From contig JABJOE010000007.1 in the NCBI GenBank assembly GCA_018664485.1, positions 132,353 through 196,352 on the forward strand: a stretch of 64,000 nt of DNA. Direction: 5' to 3'. Source of the DNA: Candidatus Uhrbacteria bacterium (lineage in GTDB: Bacteria; Patescibacteriota; Patescibacteriia; UBA9934). The position numbers and the translations under genes were made by a program. Positions 2,570 to 55,526 of this stretch are shown one piece after another (position 1 is the first letter of the stretch; every line of letters begins with the position of its first letter). Below the pieces are notes generated by a model that saw only the letters and a program-made list of their open reading frames with translations, had not been told where the DNA came from and did no database searches.

Positions 2570-5476
2570 CTATTTCTTTTTCGTCTTTGCTTTCGTTTTC
2601 TTGACTGGTGCCTTCCGAGCCGCAAATGCAAGCTTAAGCGCTTTCCCAGTATGCGTCTTATGCTTTGCGATATCTTTTGGCACACCGTTACCGACAACCA
2701 AGCCACCCTTCACACCACCTTCAGGCCCCATATCTATAATCCAATCAGATGACTGCATCACATCGGTATTATGCTCGATCACCAGAACCGTATTCCCCTT
2801 CTCAACTAAAGCATGCAACACTCCCAACAACTTACCAACATCATCAAAGTGAAGCCCCGTAGTTGGCTCATCTAAAATATACAATGTCTTTCCAGTTGCT
2901 CGACGAGAAAGTTCTGTTGAAAGCTTCACACGCTGCGCCTCACCACCCGAAAGAGTAGTTGCAGACTGTCCAAGTTTCAGATAACCAAGTCCAACTTCAT
3001 GAAGTACATTGAGCTTGTCATAAATGTTCGACCGATTAGCAAAGAACCGGCGAGCTTCATCAACCGTCATGTCCAGAACATCCGCAATATTCTTCTGACG
3101 ATAATGAATCTCCAACACCTCCTGCACATACCTACGACCTGAACACTCAGGACAATCCGAATACACATCAGGCATGAATTGCATCTCGATCCGAATTTGT
3201 CCGTCACCTGAACAGTTCTCACAACGTCCCCCACCCTTTACGTTGAAACTGAACTTTCCAGCGTCGTATCCACGAAGCTTAGCCTCGGGAACCTCTGTAA
3301 ACAAATCTCGAATAGCCGTGAACACACCAGTATATGTCGCCGGGTTCGATCGTGGAGTACGCCCAATTGGAGACTGGTCAACTGTTACAACTTTATCGAT
3401 GTTCTTAAGCCCCTTAATATCTTTATGCTGTCCGGGATATGCCTTGGCACGATAAAAGTGCTTTGAAAGCGCACGCCCCAAGATATCTAAAATCAATGTA
3501 GACTTTCCAGAACCTGATACACCGGCCACACAAACAAGCATTCCAAGTGGAATATCAACCGTAACGTTCTGGAGGTTATGCTCTTTAGCTCCAACGATTG
3601 TAATCTTCTTCTTATTTCCAGGGCGAGGCTTCTTCGGCGCAATTAGCACCTTCTGCCCTGTTAGATACTGCCCAGTCAGTGAATCTTTATTCTTCTTAAG
3701 CTGTGCTGGCGTTCCGTGAGCCACGATCTGTCCACCATATTCTCCAGCACCCGGACCGATATCAAATACATAGTCGGCAGCTTCGATCATCTCCTCATCA
3801 TGCTCTACAACCAAAACTGAGTTTCCAAGATCACGCAGACGTTTTACCGTTGCGATCAAGTGACCGTTGTCGCGTGGATGCAAACCGATAGAAGGTTCAT
3901 CTAAAACATAAATCACACCAGACAACGCCGCACCAAGCTGAGTTGAGAGCCGTACACGTTGAGACTCACCACCTGACAACGACATAGCGGCCCGATCCAA
4001 TGTGAGATATCCAAGTCCAACTTCCACAAGGTGCTTAACGCGGTCGTGAACCTCTCGAGCAACACGCTCAACAACTTTCTGCTCACCATCTGAAAGCATC
4101 TTTTGCCCCTTATTCCCTTTACTTCCCTTTTTTGCAGTCTCTAAAATCTCGTCAAAGAACGAAACAACGTCCTCAATAGGGCGCGACACAACGTCAGCAA
4201 TCGATGTACCACCGATCGTGAACATGAGTACCTCTTTACGCAGTCGTTTACCATTACAATCCGGACAAATCATCGAACGCATATAGCTCTCAAGCTCTTT
4301 GCGAACATATTCACTACTTGTCTCCTTATACTTAGTCTCAAGCATCCCAAGCACGCCAGGGAATGTCACTTCCTTCCCGGAAACGACGTAAACAGTGTCC
4401 CCTGTTCCATTGAGCAGAGTATCCATCTTCTCCGCACTAAAGGTATCCAACTCTTTATTCAAACTAAATTTCTTTTTCTTCGCAACCGCCTTTAACATCT
4501 CGATATAACTGTTCTGATTCCCAGCAATACGACTCCATGGCTTCACAGCACCCTGCTCGAGAGTAAGACGTTTGTTTGGAATAACCAGATCTGCTTCCAA
4601 AACCAATTTCATTCCAAGGCCAGTACAATCAGGACATGCACCATGTGGGGAGTTGAAAGAAAAAAGACGAGGTTCCGGCGTTGGGATCCGCATTCCACCC
4701 GGAAGATTGTATCCACGAACCAACTCAACCTCGTCACCAGTATCATCTCGATACATTAAAAGCTCATCGTTCCCCATATCAAGTGCCTGCTCGAGGATAA
4801 CGCGCATGCGCTCGATTGGAATATCTTGTCCGCCATCAAAACGCTTTGAAAGTACTTCAATTGTATGTTTCTTACTCTTCTGTTTTTTCATCGCAATAGC
4901 CTCATCCAAATCCATTGTAAGACCATCGTATCGAACTTCCTTAAACCCAGCGTTCTGTGCTGCAACCAAAACCTGATTATGCTCACCCTTCTGATCTTTG
5001 ACCATTGGCACAAACAGCATCACCTCACCTAACTTCACAGCAGCAATAATTTCCTCGGCCAAGTCATCGATAGAATTTTTCCGAATCAAGTCACCAGTCT
5101 CTGGGTTGTGAGGCTGTGCAACGCGAGAAAAAAGAACACGCAGATAATCATAAATCTCCGTCACAGTTCCCACGGTAGATCGCGGATTATGTGAAGAAGA
5201 CTTCTGGTCAATTGCAATTGTCGGTGAAAGTCCGACTATCTCGTCGACGTCAGGCTTATCTTGTAACTCAAGGAACTGTTTTGCGTAAGACGAAAGCGAC
5301 TCCATGTAGCGACGCTGTCCTTCGGCATAAATGGTGTCAAAGGCGAGAGACGACTTCCCTGACCCAGACAACCCCGTGAAGACTACGAGCTTATTTTTTG
5401 GAATGTCGCAGTTAATATTTTTCAAATTGTGAACCCGCGCACCGCGGATCGAAAGGGACTCATGTTGCACAAGCAA
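2570..5476 (-). CDS. uvrA: excinuclease ABC subunit A
   Basis: GARVHNLKN, GLSGSGKSSLAFDTIYAEGQRRY, LSGGESQR, a second NBD GVSGSGKST and LSGGEAQR; exact start uncertain. Confidence 0.97.
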   Translation of the reverse strand: MLVQHESLSIRGARVHNLKNINCDIPKNKLVVFTGLSGSGKSSLAFDTIYAEGQRRYMESLSSYAKQFLELQDKPDVDEIVGLSPTIAIDQKSSSHNPRSTVGTVTEIYDYLRVLFSRVAQPHNPETGDLIRKNSIDDLAEEIIAAVKLGEVMLFVPMVKDQKGEHNQVLVAAQNAGFKEVRYDGLTMDLDEAIAMKKQKSKKHTIEVLSKRFDGGQDIPIERMRVILEQALDMGNDELLMYRDDTGDEVELVRGYNLPGGMRIPTPEPRLFSFNSPHGACPDCTGLGMKLVLEADLVIPNKRLTLEQGAVKPWSRIAGNQNSYIEMLKAVAKKKKFSLNKELDTFSAEKMDTLLNGTGDTVYVVSGKEVTFPGVLGMLETKYKETSSEYVRKELESYMRSMICPDCNGKRLRKEVLMFTIGGTSIADVVSRPIEDVVSFFDEILETAKKGSKGNKGQKMLSDGEQKVVERVAREVHDRVKHLVEVGLGYLTLDRAAMSLSGGESQRVRLSTQLGAALSGVIYVLDEPSIGLHPRDNGHLIATVKRLRDLGNSVLVVEHDEEMIEAADYVFDIGPGAGEYGGQIVAHGTPAQLKKNKDSLTGQYLTGQKVLIAPKKPRPGNKKKITIVGAKEHNLQNVTVDIPLGMLVCVAGVSGSGKSTLILDILGRALSKHFYRAKAYPGQHKDIKGLKNIDKVVTVDQSPIGRTPRSNPATYTGVFTAIRDLFTEVPEAKLRGYDAGKFSFNVKGGGRCENCSGDGQIRIEMQFMPDVYSDCPECSGRRYVQEVLEIHYRQKNIADVLDMTVDEARRFFANRSNIYDKLNVLHEVGLGYLKLGQSATTLSGGEAQRVKLSTELSRRATGKTLYILDEPTTGLHFDDVGKLLGVLHALVEKGNTVLVIEHNTDVMQSSDWIIDMGPEGGVKGGLVVGNGVPKDIAKHKTHTGKALKLAFAARKAPVKKTKAKTKKK

Positions 5477-42282: not shown

Positions 42283-43272
42283 ATGAAAAAGGAGCAACCA
42301 AAACTAGCAAGAAGCTGGAAAAATCCAAGTCGTCTTAAGCTAATCCCTACCCGTAATGGTTTCGGTGAGGGATTAGTCGAAGCTGGAAAGGCTGACAAGA
42401 ACGTAATGGTGATCTCTGCTGACCTTACAGACTCAACAAGGGCAAGCTACTTCAAAGATGCCTTCCCTGATCGGTTTGTTCAGTTCGGAGTTGCAGAGCA
42501 AGCGATGGCAGCAACAGCGGCGGGTATGGCTCTCGCCGGAAAGACGGTTTTCATCGCAAGCTACGCCGCATTTTCACCTGGACGAAACTGGGAACAGATT
42601 CGAACAACTGCTTGTCTACAAAAAGCTAACGTAAAAATAGCTGGAGCGCATGCTGGGATCTCCGTCGGTCCAGATGGTGCAACTCACCAGATGGTTGAAG
42701 ACATTGCAATTACGCGTGTACTCCCTGAAATGAAAGTACTAGTACCATGTGACTCAATCGAGACTCGTAAAGCGACGATTGCTGCAGCAAAAATGAAAGG
42801 ACCGGTATATGTCCGCTTTGCAAGATCATCAAGCCCTGTCTTTACAACAAACGCAACTCCGTTTGCCGTTGGTAAAGCGCAGGTCTTCCGTGACGGATCC
42901 GACCTTGCCATCATCGCCTGTGGACCTCTTGTATATGAAGCCCTGATGGCGGCAGAGGAACTTTCAAAGCTCGGTATCGAAGCTCGAGTTATCAATAACG
43001 TGAGTGTAAAGCCGATGGACGAGAAGACAATCGTGCAAGCTGCAAAAGACTGTGGTGCGATCGTCACAATAGAGGAAGCTCAAGCGGCTGCCGGAATGGG
43101 TTCAGCGGTATGTGAAATAACATCGCAACACTTCCCCGTCCCAGTAGAACGTATGGGCATGCAAGACCGCTTCGGTGAATCCGGAGAGCCCAACGAGCTA
43201 CTAGAGCACTTCGGATTAACTGCTCCGTATATTGTAAAAGCAGCCAAACGAATAATGAAAAAGAAGAAATAG
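42283..43272 (+). CDS. transketolase, C-terminal subunit
   Basis: SADLTDS, GVAEQ, GPDGATHQ, GPVYVRF, DRFGESG. Confidence 0.93.
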   Translation: MKKEQPKLARSWKNPSRLKLIPTRNGFGEGLVEAGKADKNVMVISADLTDSTRASYFKDAFPDRFVQFGVAEQAMAATAAGMALAGKTVFIASYAAFSPGRNWEQIRTTACLQKANVKIAGAHAGISVGPDGATHQMVEDIAITRVLPEMKVLVPCDSIETRKATIAAAKMKGPVYVRFARSSSPVFTTNATPFAVGKAQVFRDGSDLAIIACGPLVYEALMAAEELSKLGIEARVINNVSVKPMDEKTIVQAAKDCGAIVTIEEAQAAAGMGSAVCEITSQHFPVPVERMGMQDRFGESGEPNELLEHFGLTAPYIVKAAKRIMKKKK

Positions 43273-43341
43273 TCATAGGCTCAATTTTGACAGAAAAGGG
43301 GTAAAACAAGGCTTTTTACCTCTTTTTTTGTTCATTGGCAC

Positions 43342-43370
43342 TTGACAAAAGTGCTATTTTGTGCTACTAT
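43342..43370 (+). promoter_or_regulatory. near-consensus sigma70 promoter upstream of the cassette array
   Basis: TTGACA-17 nt-TACTAT with a TG extension. Confidence 0.8.
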
Positions 43371-43552
43371 GTGAGGGTAGTTAAATTTCAAGTCTCTTTA
43401 CAATTTAGTGAATGTGAGCCCACGTTGATATTTTGGGTGATGCCTCTAGGCTCACTCTACCCCCAGCTATAGCCTATGAGTTATAGCTATTTTTATTTGG
43501 GAAAAAGATGAAAGGACAGGCCTTTTCATCTCGGTCTCAAACCGAGTGTTCA

Positions 43553-43673
43553 CACAGCTCTCGTTAGCACGAGAACACCCAATACATTCTCGGTAATCAC
43601 TGAGTGAGGGTGGCAAGCTGTACAAGATGTCCTGGCGCCTATGTCATGGACAGCTATCCCGACCATGGGATAG
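43553..43673 (+). ncRNA. structured repeat element, copy 1 (core; most divergent)
   Basis: CACAGC-TCTCG/CGAGA-CACCC...GGGTG-GCTGTA-TGTCC/GGACA-CTATCCC/GGGATAG, then AGGAG and ATG. Confidence 0.75.
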
Positions 43674-43684
43674 GAGAACATACA

Positions 43685-44047
43685 ATGGAAGAAAAGCTTG
43701 CAACCGATCAGAAGCGCCTCTCAAATGAGTTCCTGCTTGAATTCTTGAGTGCGACTAACAATGACGAGCGCTGCAAAGCGCTTATCAAGGAGTCATACCG
43801 ACTCTGGCCGAACAGGGATGGAAATCTCTACGATGGAGCCGACCACCCGTACTGTGTCTGGGAGAACAATGCCACAACTGCCGTTTCACGCGAGGAGAAT
43901 GCAAAGATCTGTCTCCAACACGCGAAATATGCAGACAGCAACTGCCCGTTCGCAGATGGCGGAGTCCTCTACGACTTTGTCACAACTAGTGTACTTCTGT
44001 GGGAGCCAGAAAAAGCCCGCATCAAAGAAGTTTACGAGTCACTGTAG
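43685..44047 (+). CDS. array cassette ORF 1, 120-aa orphan protein
   Basis: MEEKLATDQ...; AGGAG SD; starts 11 nt after repeat copy 1. Confidence 0.7.
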   Translation: MEEKLATDQKRLSNEFLLEFLSATNNDERCKALIKESYRLWPNRDGNLYDGADHPYCVWENNATTAVSREENAKICLQHAKYADSNCPFADGGVLYDFVTTSVLLWEPEKARIKEVYESL

Positions 44048-44058
44048 TTCTACTATCT

Positions 44059-44259
44059 CCCCAAGCAACTCGCTTGGGGCTCCGCAGAGCACATCACACA
44101 GTGGTGGATTCCGCAGAGCAGGAATACTTCCCGCTTCAATACAGCCCTCGACCAACGAGGACATCTAATACATTCCCGGAGACTACCGGGTGAAGATGGC
44201 AGTCTGTGTAATATATCCTGACATTTGTGTCATGGATAACTATCCCTTGGTACGGATAG
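44059..44259 (+). ncRNA. structured repeat element, copy 2
   Basis: CCCCAAGC/GCTTGGGG hairpin, GCTC...GAGC domain, core TACAGCCCTCGACCAACGAGG...CTATCC/GGATAG. Confidence 0.8.
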
Positions 44260-44269
44260 AAGTATACAT

Positions 44270-44656
44270 ATGAGCGCGATCCTCTTTCTCCTGCTTTCAA
44301 GTCTCCTAGCACACGCAGACGACATCGTCACTACAACAAGGGCCGAAACGGTTGTCGGTTATAGTGACGAGACTCTGATCTCCATAACTTCCGAAGTTGG
44401 AAGAGAGTGCTACGCCGCACGAAAGTGGCGACACTCAACTCTCGTATGCAGCGACATAGCAGTCTACACAATCCTTACGCACTCAGGTACATCATTGAAA
44501 AGTGTCAGTGTACCCATGTCGGCAACGACCTGGAATACTGCTCCGGTACCTGGTAGCCGAATCGAAATTAGGTGCGAAGTAACAGTAGATGAGTACAACA
44601 ACACAAACGGGTACCCGCTATTCATCCGGCGCCTTGATGAGTGCTGGGCGAACTAG
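44270..44656 (+). CDS. array cassette ORF 2, 128-aa secreted orphan protein
   Basis: Signal peptide MSAILFLLLSSLLAHA; 4 Cys. Confidence 0.7.
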   Translation: MSAILFLLLSSLLAHADDIVTTTRAETVVGYSDETLISITSEVGRECYAARKWRHSTLVCSDIAVYTILTHSGTSLKSVSVPMSATTWNTAPVPGSRIEIRCEVTVDEYNNTNGYPLFIRRLDECWAN

Positions 44657-44668
44657 TCAAACCCTTCT

Positions 44669-44864
44669 CCCCCTGGTACTAACCGGGGGCTCGATATAGA
44701 GCATGACAGAATCGTGCCTTGCGTCGAGCTAGATCATATCTGGCCTACATGCAGCCCTCGACCAACGAGGACTTCCAATAATCCGGATTTCCCGGTGAGG
44801 ATGACAAGCTGTACTAGATATCCTGCCCCTCGGGTCATGGATAGCTATCCCTTGGTACGGATAG
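44669..44864 (+). ncRNA. structured repeat element, copy 3
   Basis: CCCCTGGT/ACCGGGGG hairpin, GCTCGA...TCGAGC domain, core CAGCCCTCGACCAACGAGG...GGATAG. Confidence 0.8.
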
Positions 44865-44876
44865 AAGTAATAAGAG

Positions 44877-45404
44877 ATGCCAGAACATCAGAAAACTGAG
44901 GCTATGCTAAAAATGATGGCCAGCCGGACGGCAAAGGAGCTTCCGCCCCTTCCAGATGGATCCAAAATCATTCTGGAAGACGCACCTTCCGGACTCGTTC
45001 TAGCCAGAAACAGTCAGCGAGGAGGAATGTTTAGAAGGTGGAACGATGACAGAGGTCTTTTTCGCCGATTACTAGATCTGCTTCTTGGGTACAGTAGGAA
45101 AGGAGTACCCGTTCGACTGTTCGACCTGACCTGCTCAAACCAGTTCGACCTAGTTGAGTCAGAGCACGTCATAAAGGAAGCGTACATGGAGCTTCGGTGC
45201 ATCATCCAAACAAAGCCCAAACAGGTCTACCGAGAACTGTTTGGTAAAGCTGCACCTCCTCACTGGTCAAATAAGGAGGAGATGTGTATGCATAGACTAA
45301 ATGATGCATTCAAAATCAATCAACGGAACCGCACTGATCTCTCTGGGGTCTTCGCGATCCGGTATGCGTGCGAATGCGCCATAAAAGCAAGCTACCCACT
45401 CTAG
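44877..45404 (+). CDS. array cassette ORF 3, 175-aa orphan protein
   Basis: ATG 12 nt after repeat copy 3; stop 6 nt before copy 4. Confidence 0.7.
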   Translation: MPEHQKTEAMLKMMASRTAKELPPLPDGSKIILEDAPSGLVLARNSQRGGMFRRWNDDRGLFRRLLDLLLGYSRKGVPVRLFDLTCSNQFDLVESEHVIKEAYMELRCIIQTKPKQVYRELFGKAAPPHWSNKEEMCMHRLNDAFKINQRNRTDLSGVFAIRYACECAIKASYPL

Positions 45405-45410
45405 TACCTT

Positions 45411-45602
45411 CCCCAAGCTCTAAGCTTGGGGCTCCGCAGAGCACATCACATCGTGGTGGATTCCGCAGAGCAGGATAATATCCCGCTTAAATACAGCCCT
45501 CGACCAACGAGGACTTCCAATAATCCGGATTTCCCGGTGAGGATGACAAGCTGTACTAGATATCCTGCCTCTCGGGTCATGGATAGCTATCCGGAAGGAT
45601 AG
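45411..45602 (+). ncRNA. structured repeat element, copy 4
   Basis: 5' half nearly identical to copy 2; core nearly identical to copy 3. Confidence 0.8.
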
Positions 45603-45610
45603 TGGTAGTC

Positions 45611-45886
45611 ATGAAAATTCAAACAAAAACAGCTAAAGCGTTCCTTGAAGATAAAGTTGGCACAGCCACCATCCAGCTAATGTGGCTCCTGTTCACAGTC
45701 GAATGGGCATGGATGTTCTCTGGTGTAGCAGAGTACATGATCGCAGCACCAATCGGTGGAACGATCGTAACCTTTATTATCGCCGCGGCAAGTGAAAGCC
45801 GCGAGCAAGCAGAGGCCAGACAAGTGTCGCTAATGTTCCTCGCCTCTCCGCTTGCGTTCGCTATCTACGTCGTCCCTATGTTTTGA
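45611..45886 (+). CDS. array cassette ORF 4, 91-aa membrane protein (about 3 TM)
   Basis: ATG 8 nt after repeat copy 4; hydrophobic segments; CCCCGC/GCGGGG hairpin downstream. Confidence 0.65.
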   Translation: MKIQTKTAKAFLEDKVGTATIQLMWLLFTVEWAWMFSGVAEYMIAAPIGGTIVTFIIAAASESREQAEARQVSLMFLASPLAFAIYVVPMF

Positions 45887-46056
45887 TGAGCTTCACACCT
45901 CTTCAATTCCCTCCCCCGCGCCATCTGGTATAGCGGGGGTTTGAGTTTGGGCTTTATTTTTTACCAATAAACTGCGTGAGCTCAGCAAATTAAGGTTGAT
46001 TTCATTACCTATAGCTGTTTGCGTGAACTGCGTTGTTAGCGTACGATACGCCTATT

Positions 46057-46758
46057 ATGCGACTGAATAAATATATTGCTCAATCAGGATACTGTTCACG
46101 CCGAAAGGCTGATCAGCTAATTGAAGACGGTGTGGTGACCATCAATGGGAATCCATCAGAGGTAGGTCAAAAAGTGGCCCACAATGATGTTGTTGCAGTG
46201 AACGGTCAAAAAATAGAAATAAACGAAAAGGAAGTTTATTTAGCTTTTCACAAACCATTTGGCGTAATCTGTACCGCTGACGAAAAAGCCGACAATACTA
46301 TTTACGACTACCTTCCTACTGATCAACGACTTCTGTATGTTGGTAGACTCGACGTTGAATCAAGTGGACTCCTGATCATGACAAGCGACGGGAATGTTGC
46401 AAACGCGATTGCGCACGGAAGCGGAAGTCACGAAAAAGAATACATCGTAACTGTCGACAAACCGATCAATCGAGCATTCGCTAAAAAAATGCGTGACGGT
46501 GTAATCATCGAAGGAGAAAAAACAAAACCAGCTCTTATCAAAAAAATGCGAGATGACCGATTCTCTCTCATCATCACACAAGGACGCAACCGACAGGTCA
46601 GAAAAATGTGTGAAGCTTTTGGATACAAAGTAAAAACACTTCGACGCGTTCGCGTTATGAACGTAAAGCTAGGAGCGCTTGGCGAAGGAAACTACCGGCC
46701 ACTTACAAAAAATGAACGCCGAGGACTTTTGGCATCGCTAGGAATGAAACAAGCTTAA
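46057..46758 (+). CDS. rRNA pseudouridine synthase (RsuA/RluB/RluF family)
   Basis: S4 domain MRLNKYIA..G.CSRRKAD; GRLD; HEKEY; GRNRQVRKM. Confidence 0.93.
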   Translation: MRLNKYIAQSGYCSRRKADQLIEDGVVTINGNPSEVGQKVAHNDVVAVNGQKIEINEKEVYLAFHKPFGVICTADEKADNTIYDYLPTDQRLLYVGRLDVESSGLLIMTSDGNVANAIAHGSGSHEKEYIVTVDKPINRAFAKKMRDGVIIEGEKTKPALIKKMRDDRFSLIITQGRNRQVRKMCEAFGYKVKTLRRVRVMNVKLGALGEGNYRPLTKNERRGLLASLGMKQA

Positions 46759-55011: not shown

Positions 55012-55235
55012 AAAATTTTATTGTTGTGCATAACTTTCACGTTTTTGTTTTTTTTATTGCACAAACAACGATATACTTTAAACAGAAGCATTTTTGTTTC
55101 TTCGTTGTATGGTGCACGCACGTGCGCATGATGCAGTGAAAAAAATTTGCGCGACGATCAAAAAAAACTTTGCTGTCGACAAAGTGATCGACGTGACATA
55201 TGACATTTCAATTGTCACTAGAAAGGGTACAAAAT

Positions 55236-55526
55236 ATGCCTGCTAAAAAACGAAAGCCAGCTAAAAAGAAAGTAGCTAAGCGAAAGCCTGCGAAACGCAA
55301 AGTTGCGAAACGTAAGCCAGCTAAGCGAAAGGTTGCTAAGCGTAAGCCTGCAAAACGAAAGACTGCAGCAAAGCGTAAACCAGCTAAAAAGAAAGTAGCT
55401 AAGCGAAAGCCTGCGAAACGCAAAGTTGCGAAACGTAAGCCAGCTAAGCGAAAGGTTGCTAAGCGTAAGCCTGCAAAACGAAAGACTGCAGCAAAGCGTA
55501 AACCAGCTAAACGTAAAAAGCGTTAA
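55236..55526 (+). CDS. histone H1-like basic repeat protein (Hc2-like)
   Basis: 96 aa made almost entirely of KRKPAKRKVA repeats. Confidence 0.8.
   Translation: MPAKKRKPAKKKVAKRKPAKRKVAKRKPAKRKVAKRKPAKRKTAAKRKPAKKKVAKRKPAKRKVAKRKPAKRKVAKRKPAKRKTAAKRKPAKRKKR
55257..55502 (+). repeat. exact 123-bp tandem duplication inside the histone-like gene
   Basis: 55257-55379 is identical to 55380-55502. Confidence 0.9.

Follow-up and report, generated by a model that had tools for sequence, protein, structure and literature searches.

The slot between tktC and rsuA

We analysed a 64,000-nucleotide stretch of DNA (the window, G000:C6:132353-196352) that carries an array of four orphan open reading frames (ORFs) separated by long, structured and repeated spacers. 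The genome (G000; 981,522 bp in 10 contigs, 100% complete by markers) belongs to an ultra-small marine bacterium of the Patescibacteria. The array occupies the slot between tktC, encoding the transketolase C-terminal subunit (42283-43272, + strand; PF02779/PF02780, and synteny with rsuA), and rsuA, encoding an RsuA-like pseudouridine synthase (46033-46758, + strand; PF00849/PF01479). According to the run listing, the stretch occurs, whole or in part, in 20 marine DNA runs from 17 studies, and the four of these runs that were compared base by base agree with it, with no alternative letters listed. The stretch is therefore not a one-off assembly. No RNA run containing the stretch was among the runs listed.

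Downstream of tktC, the terminator scan placed a terminator-like hairpin belonging to the upstream operon (43292-43328, +). It is followed by a sigma-70-type promoter-like site, TTGACA-17-TACTAT (43342-43370, +; 10/12, with TG), the sole + strand match of the promoter scan in the array region. The region holds 5 promoter-like sites against 3.2 by chance, a total that alone is unremarkable. Other orphan islets of this genome are headed by near-identical copies of the promoter. A structured leader (43380-43552, +) comes next, recognized by folding and by similarity to the sister genome G001, where a leader at a different locus is 80% identical to positions 43391-43440. A terminator-like hairpin inside the leader (43465-43488), 5' of core 1, could attenuate the array.

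Four units follow on the + strand. Core 1 (43553-43673), predicted to form a three-way junction (P1-P4) with hairpins P5 and P6 after it, precedes ORF1 (43685-44047, 120 aa). The post-stop hairpins A-B-C of type alpha (44057-44139) and core 2 (44140-44259) lead to ORF2 (44270-44656, 128 aa), whose hydrophobic N-terminus is a putative signal peptide. After A-B-C hairpins of type beta (44667-44749) come core 3 (44750-44864) and ORF3 (44877-45404, 175 aa), and then a second type alpha block (45409-45491), about 85% identical to the one after ORF1, core 4 (45492-45602) and ORF4 (45611-45886, 91 aa), a hydrophobic and probably membrane-located protein. Beyond ORF4 there is a lone hairpin A with a T-rich tail (45913-45939, +), a likely terminator though the terminator scan did not call one.

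The internal spacers, each about 210-220 nt long, have the same order: stop codon, hairpin A (CCCC..GGGG, 6-26 nt past each stop), hairpins B and C, a short A/T-rich link, core, 8-12 nt and the ATG. The A-B-C hairpins form a second block 5' of the core that varies separately from it, and the 5' block of unit 1 differs from that of the internal spacers. A sequence-only reading of this DNA had described one near-consensus promoter, four repeat cores ending 8-12 nt before an ATG, and mutually unrelated ORFs between them; all of these held up on analysis, with the ATG lying 11, 10, 12 and 8 nt beyond the cores. Its post-stop CCCC...GGGG hairpin, found alone after ORF4, also stands, with two refinements: it belongs to the separate A-B-C block, and unit 1 differs at its 5' end.

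The four ORFs show no detectable paralogy among themselves (blastp E >= 5), and the chance of each frame being open is 0.0001-0.012. In a near-length search of 5.8 billion proteins, ORF1, ORF3 and ORF4 recovered their own clusters only, and ORF2 recovered only itself among 1.84 billion representatives. None of them matched Pfam, and the best cargo match in PHROGs had an E of 0.31. Single-sequence AlphaFold models were all-alpha for ORF1 and all-beta for ORF2 (pLDDT 52 and 41), and Foldseek with the cargo models gave no match at E <= 0.001. ESM leads below 0.9 (ORF2, 0.83; a RuvC-like lead for ORF3, 0.89 with 149/256 features) were not accepted. The four units could in principle descend from one tandem-duplicated gene whose coding part has diverged past recognition, and paralogues do stand behind conserved spacers in some other arrays of the genome. 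Against this, ORF3 (175 aa) and the hydrophobic ORF4 (91 aa) are unalike though their cores share 76 identical nt, and the models of ORF1 and ORF2, at low confidence, are all-alpha and all-beta. We find such an origin hardly credible.

Fold and mosaicism of the spacers

A single helix pattern fits all four cores, which are pairwise 65-92% identical. The genome holds these four clustered copies only (nhmmer E 1e-37 to 1e-40; next match E 3.5). The helices covary: in the four-copy alignment, which omits P4 because it aligned badly, 98% of the cells are paired and 5 of the 30 pairs are compensatory, having changed on both sides, and the one-sided changes yield G-U on the + strand. Shuffles scored as high in 0-2 of 500 cases on four of the five measures and in 88 of 500 on the fifth; slid controls paired 32-43%. 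On the + strand the spacers fold with z-scores of -3.2 to -4.3. For the leader and spacer 3, the - strand folds clearly less well; for spacers 2 and 4, the two strands are equal. Loop-loop (kissing) pairing of P2 with P6 was rejected, as it fits copies 2 and 3 only.

Another reading makes the 120-nt core a new ribozyme or riboswitch, which would cleave the polycistron or control translation gene by gene. The core does have invariant unpaired letters, and the junction can pair with the P5 loop in an alternative 4-bp helix, intact in 4/4 copies; this helix, however, shows no two-sided change. The element matches no known Rfam family (nothing on the array below E 1.8), and there was no match to descriptors of hammerhead or hepatitis delta virus (HDV)-like cores, a comparison run with no positive control. 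The core was also not found outside this species. Taken with these results, a ribozyme or riboswitch appears very unlikely.

The spacers are mosaics of each other. The A-B-C block is common to spacers 2 and 4. Spacers 3 and 4 agree in the core, over 76 identical nt (from 44752 and 45494), and spacers 2 and 3 agree in P6, over 25 identical nt. The 84 informative sites fall into three blocks (2=4, 3=4 and 2=3) with 19 runs (p about 5e-5), and the partner switches sit inside the two blocks that are invariant in all three spacers. Simple tandem duplication does not give such a mosaic, whereas recombination or conversion between spacers does. In one of the four compared runs a contig joins 44751 to 45494 and skips unit 3 exactly; the junction lies across the 76-nt repeat at about 3x depth, where low coverage could explain it, and we have not counted it.

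Exchange between the spacers might be the work of a site- or structure-specific recombinase, whether the genome's own XerC/D-like enzyme or one that a mobile element provides in trans, acting on folded single-stranded spacers as IntI does on attC. One promoter followed by promoterless cassettes would suit such an enzyme, and the repeat ends often coincide with hairpin ends. However, the attC ends are lacking: the motif RYYYAAC...GTTRRRY matched the + strand at 44433, 43380 and 45153 only, and nowhere in the repeated spacers. The sole tyrosine recombinase of the genome (PF00589) lies on another contig, is XerC/D-like (best models XerD/XerC) and scores 139.5 with TIGR02249, under the integron-integrase cut-off of 265. 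The spacers also show two switch zones instead of one crossover point, and no k-mer is common to 12 arrays of this genome beyond shuffles. We think that such a recombinase is distinctly unlikely. A 123-aa gene 3' of the Xer recombinase (L105:2095-2466) resembles, by eye, the four-helix-bundle intervening-sequence (IVS) proteins.

The sequence-only reading had remarked on repeats without attC ends and on a window without integrase or reverse transcriptase; the motif scan agrees with the former, and the latter extends to the whole genome for IntI and PF00078 (the reverse transcriptase of diversity-generating retroelements, retrons and group II introns). Resolvase families, IS200 (PF01797; RAYT/Y1) and IS110 (PF02371), the transposition-related families searched for, were likewise not found in the genome. 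With four clustered copies only, the core is not dispersed in the manner of insertion sequence ends, miniature inverted-repeat transposable elements or repetitive extragenic palindromes (REPs). The genome does encode ComEC, DprA and RecA, as well as RNase III, Y and J; Rho_N was not found in it. In Saccharibacteria, DNA uptake via ComEC with integration through arms as short as 221 bp is described (PMC10633639).

The slot in the family and related arrays

In 51/68 genomes of the family (hand count), tktC and rsuA share a contig and a strand, and the gap between them ranges from 11 bp to 16.6 kb, with differing contents. We fetched 40 of these slots, plus that of G001; ORF1-4 occur neither in the 40 slots nor in G001. 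In G001, the slot holds a GC-rich FliA/WhiG-like sigma factor gene alone, behind a similar promoter (L053, G001:C14, about 4550-5270). G004 (L067) has a repeat array of its own in the slot, running on the opposite strand, and every spacer of it contains TTGACA and a terminator-like hairpin. This array is nearer to the true promoter-early-stem-loop (PeSL) cassettes of phages, and two of its ORF calls share their first 16 residues because the repeat runs into the ORFs. Repeated-spacer arrays also fill the slots of G032, G016, G138, G152 and G118, all of genus g2, and of G087; the cargo in the last (L084:4440-7170) includes a pair of MoxR AAA ATPase and VWA protein genes. The slot is thus hypervariable across relatives, whereas the idea of captured accessory genes would have suffered from invariant content.

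The core itself was searched for widely. Its covariance model found only the own genome among 150 genomes of the order (0/149 others), so the further arrays with this core that the sequence-only reading had proposed to look for were not found in relatives, including the whole sister genome G001. BLAST over 401 genomes of the class gave 3 weak non-self matches, and a GTDB scan gave 3 matches; the covariance model retained none of either. Pattern scans of viral sequences gave 32 matches (only the seed matched), 0 and 8, and scans of metagenomes gave 0 and 5; the covariance model dropped the 8 and the 5. Phages and plasmids had no match. Over 39 of the 40 fetched slots the best E of the model was 0.052, and over L081 with six further loci it was 0.056. 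The searched collections may omit records very near this genome.

The g2 slot arrays each run on a single strand, hold up to 14 small ORFs and have common hairpin modules but mostly different cargo. That of G138 has 14 ORFs led by a Shine-Dalgarno (SD) sequence, preceded by a promoter-like site and a leader of about 1.2 kb, and none of the 15 array proteins tested reaches a Pfam cut-off. Hairpin modules, chained in shuffled combinations, make up its spacers, and these modules are common to g2 genomes. A homologue in another g2 array was found for 17 of the 39 SD-led g2 array ORFs, and cargo common to different genera is up to 84% identical. Between G138 and G118, the order of two common genes (80% and 66%) is reversed without a change of strand, and around one of them a shared block of 859 bp has both its ends inside spacer modules. 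The g2 arrays display gain, loss and reordering of cargo at the slot, though in another spacer family. Rfam gave nothing at its gathering score on the g2 arrays (best E 0.35), viral contigs yielded no copy of the g2 module, and a search with a g2 small protein gave one 26-residue match. The G138 leader (L081:3599-5003), which has no Rfam match, lies beside a divergent TrmB-like regulator, is partly conserved in G032, G016, G152, G118, G035 and G087, and is a candidate large structured RNA. The same locus encodes, at L081:5003, 8413, 9551 and 10687, related proteins of 66-76 aa (30-58% identical where matched); members of this recurrent family follow one leader module, and in g2 arrays they alternate with other cargo.

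The post-stop double hairpin of g2 covaries in 8/25 pairs. We built a model (R2) from 12 g2 copies alone and ran it on the 64-kb window without filters; the three internal A-B modules were the top 3 of its 7 matches, on the + strand, with E of 0.029, 0.16 and 0.27. On nine chosen loci, the array spacers of G001 reached E of 3.5e-4 to 1.8e-3, with an opposite-strand match at 1.2e-3.

Within G000, crude gene calls of our own gave 23 clusters of locally repeated spacers. A local repeat was present in 19/116 co-directional spacers before genes not found in G001, against 13/252 before shared genes (p 0.001), a count made in G000 only. In the orthologous arrays of G001, most or all of the ORFs lack homology to those of G000. 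One such difference lies at C3:58.4-59.2 kb, where identical 43-bp repeats in G000 enclose an additional 163-aa ORF, and the matching G001 locus has a single chimeric-looking repeat copy joined to the downstream part, without this ORF; this is the topology described for PeSLs (PMC2839356). The array between tktC and rsuA is a species-specific instance of a pattern that runs through the family. SD-like pairing was found for 13/27 hand-picked array genes and 36/436 core genes, the higher GC of the arrays inflating chance matches, and leaders of array genes are more structured and GC-richer than those of core genes.

Several side observations belong to the same genome. Its core genes are seldom SD-led (GGAG in 13/319 long genes) although the 16S rRNA retains the anti-SD. 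At C6:109157/109995, C4:2142/4232 and C7:1544/2942, direct repeats of 53-146 bp with 95-100% identity enclose species-specific genes, as would be expected after recent single-crossover insertion. A RAY../UGA internal loop, spotted by eye in several arrays, was rejected because it is not enriched across the genome (24 outside core genes, against 24 for CGA and 22 for TGC). Coding tandem repeats in the window at 55210-55511 encode a Lys/Ala/Pro-rich, histone-like stretch.

The comparison of array and core genes bears on another explanation, namely that the spacers are expression modules only, each combining a 3' stabiliser and a 5' leader. In that case they would have spread by local duplication and gene conversion, the genes would have arrived by illegitimate recombination, and the units would not be mobile. 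The covariation, which implies selection on RNA structure, speaks for it, as do the difference between array and core genes in SD use and leader structure, and the fact that the compared runs established neither a circle nor a strain variant here. On the other hand, the same-strand reordering of common g2 cargo, shared blocks that end inside modules and the extra ORF between the 43-bp repeats are hard to accommodate, and we consider this explanation unlikely.

Proposed cassette exchange and known systems

We lean, by a modest degree, towards an integrase-free cassette array in which RecA-type crossovers between spacers, fed by competence, exchange the units, and in which the spacers also act as mRNA signals. 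A cassette would consist of the 3' part of one spacer (the core), the ORF and the 5' part of the next spacer (A-B-C). Incoming DNA would enter through the competence machinery, and a RecA-type crossover between homologous spacers would insert, delete or reorder units. Expression would be kept through these exchanges because every chimeric spacer retains the same fold, and selection on this fold likely reflects a role in the mRNA. The four genes would probably share one mRNA. On it, hairpins A-B would delimit and shield the 3' end of the gene before them, and the core would protect a 5' end made by processing and prepare the next gene for translation; RNase Y or III could carry out the processing, with RNase J as the threat. 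The exchange part of this reading has comparative evidence behind it; the mRNA role and the enzymes are inferred, as are transcription, processing, circles, RecA dependence and the mobility of these four cassettes. Cassette shuffling is supported indirectly, by the mosaic spacers here and by the gain, loss and reordering seen in g2 sequences at the same slot.

A number of points weigh against this interpretation. The core is confined to this species in all searches, so that exchange of cargo is seen only for other spacer families, and some other arrays of G000 carry paralogous cargo. The covariation comes from four related copies only, the strand bias of folding is clear in just two of the four spacers, and a well-folding sequence (z -2.6) also lies at the start of ORF2. 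The R2 matches in the window are individually weak, any strong double hairpin scores somewhat, and at E <= 0.001 R2 was found in 10/150 genomes of the order, with G000 and G001 not among them. Gene conversion between neighbours also yields mosaics. Finally, the identical blocks are short (9-76 nt) compared with the 221-bp arms reported to work in Saccharibacteria (PMC10633639).

The sequence-only reading had offered two alternatives, an integron-like but attC-independent platform and a polycistron with a repeated RNA element, and these likely hold together. The platform gains from the slot variation, the mosaics and the reordering in g2. What finds no support is a dedicated element or a protein partner, as the core occurs in one species, the arrays of this genome have no common k-mer and the sole recombinase found is XerC/D-like.

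Repeated hairpins between the genes of one transcript are familiar from the intercistronic RNase III sites of the phage T7 early operon and from the REP and bacterial interspersed mosaic element (BIME) stabilisers of mRNA. The elements here are much larger than these and are tied to variable orphan cargo; unlike REP/BIME, they come with no RAYT/Y1 gene that we could find and their copies are not dispersed.

The nearest likeness is to the PeSL cassettes of T4-type phages (PMC2839356; PMC4122927), which are orphan ORFs between repeated chimeric regulatory elements in hypervariable regions, with indels of one element-ORF unit and with homologous recombination, not an integrase, proposed. Chimeric elements flanking orphan ORFs in a hypervariable region are found here as well. 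In contrast to the phage system, the array is chromosomal, with one upstream promoter-like site, and its internal spacers lack the sigma-70 promoter with stem-loop that each PeSL carries. The PeSL elements are an AT-rich promoter and a stem-loop, whereas the spacers here are 200-nt chains of GC-rich hairpins with covariation; mini-circles have been demonstrated for PeSLs, and the present array is known from sequence contigs alone. With integrons and clusters of attC sites lacking an integrase (CALINs), a class for which IntI is not required, the array shares one promoter, tandem promoterless single-gene units, unrelated cargo and reordering, but it differs in having no attC ends or IntI, lineage-specific modular repeats, and crossover zones rather than a single point (PMC4889954).

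We found no description of such arrays in Patescibacteria, in a literature search whose coverage excluded subscription papers and preprint supplements. In their accessible parts, a study of gene exchange among Patescibacteria (PMC12455944) does not contain the word 'integron', PMC9297842 has nothing on SD use, and a preprint (bioRxiv 10.64898/2026.10.21.760802) mentions neither the candidate phyla radiation (CPR) nor cassettes. The array is a variant of the PeSL/integron type that is not in print as far as our search reached.

More tentatively, this family of Patescibacteria might organise much of its accessory genome, free of integrases, in fixed chromosomal slots with one strong promoter each, where orphan genes come packaged with interchangeable modules of structured RNA. 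The modules would then be both recombination handles and an SD-led expression code for processed mRNA, distinct from the mostly SD-less core genes, and cassettes would be traded between genera. Such an 'RNA integron' is a possibility that we rate as less likely than not. Patescibacteria have many orphan genes and are naturally competent. A slot-and-spacer system, if true, would offer a testable route by which a compact genome could accommodate and express these genes undisturbed, would extend the PeSL principle beyond phages to the chromosome of a cell, and would add new structured RNAs. The g2 arrays, with five genomes, common modules and reordered cargo, allow comparative testing now.

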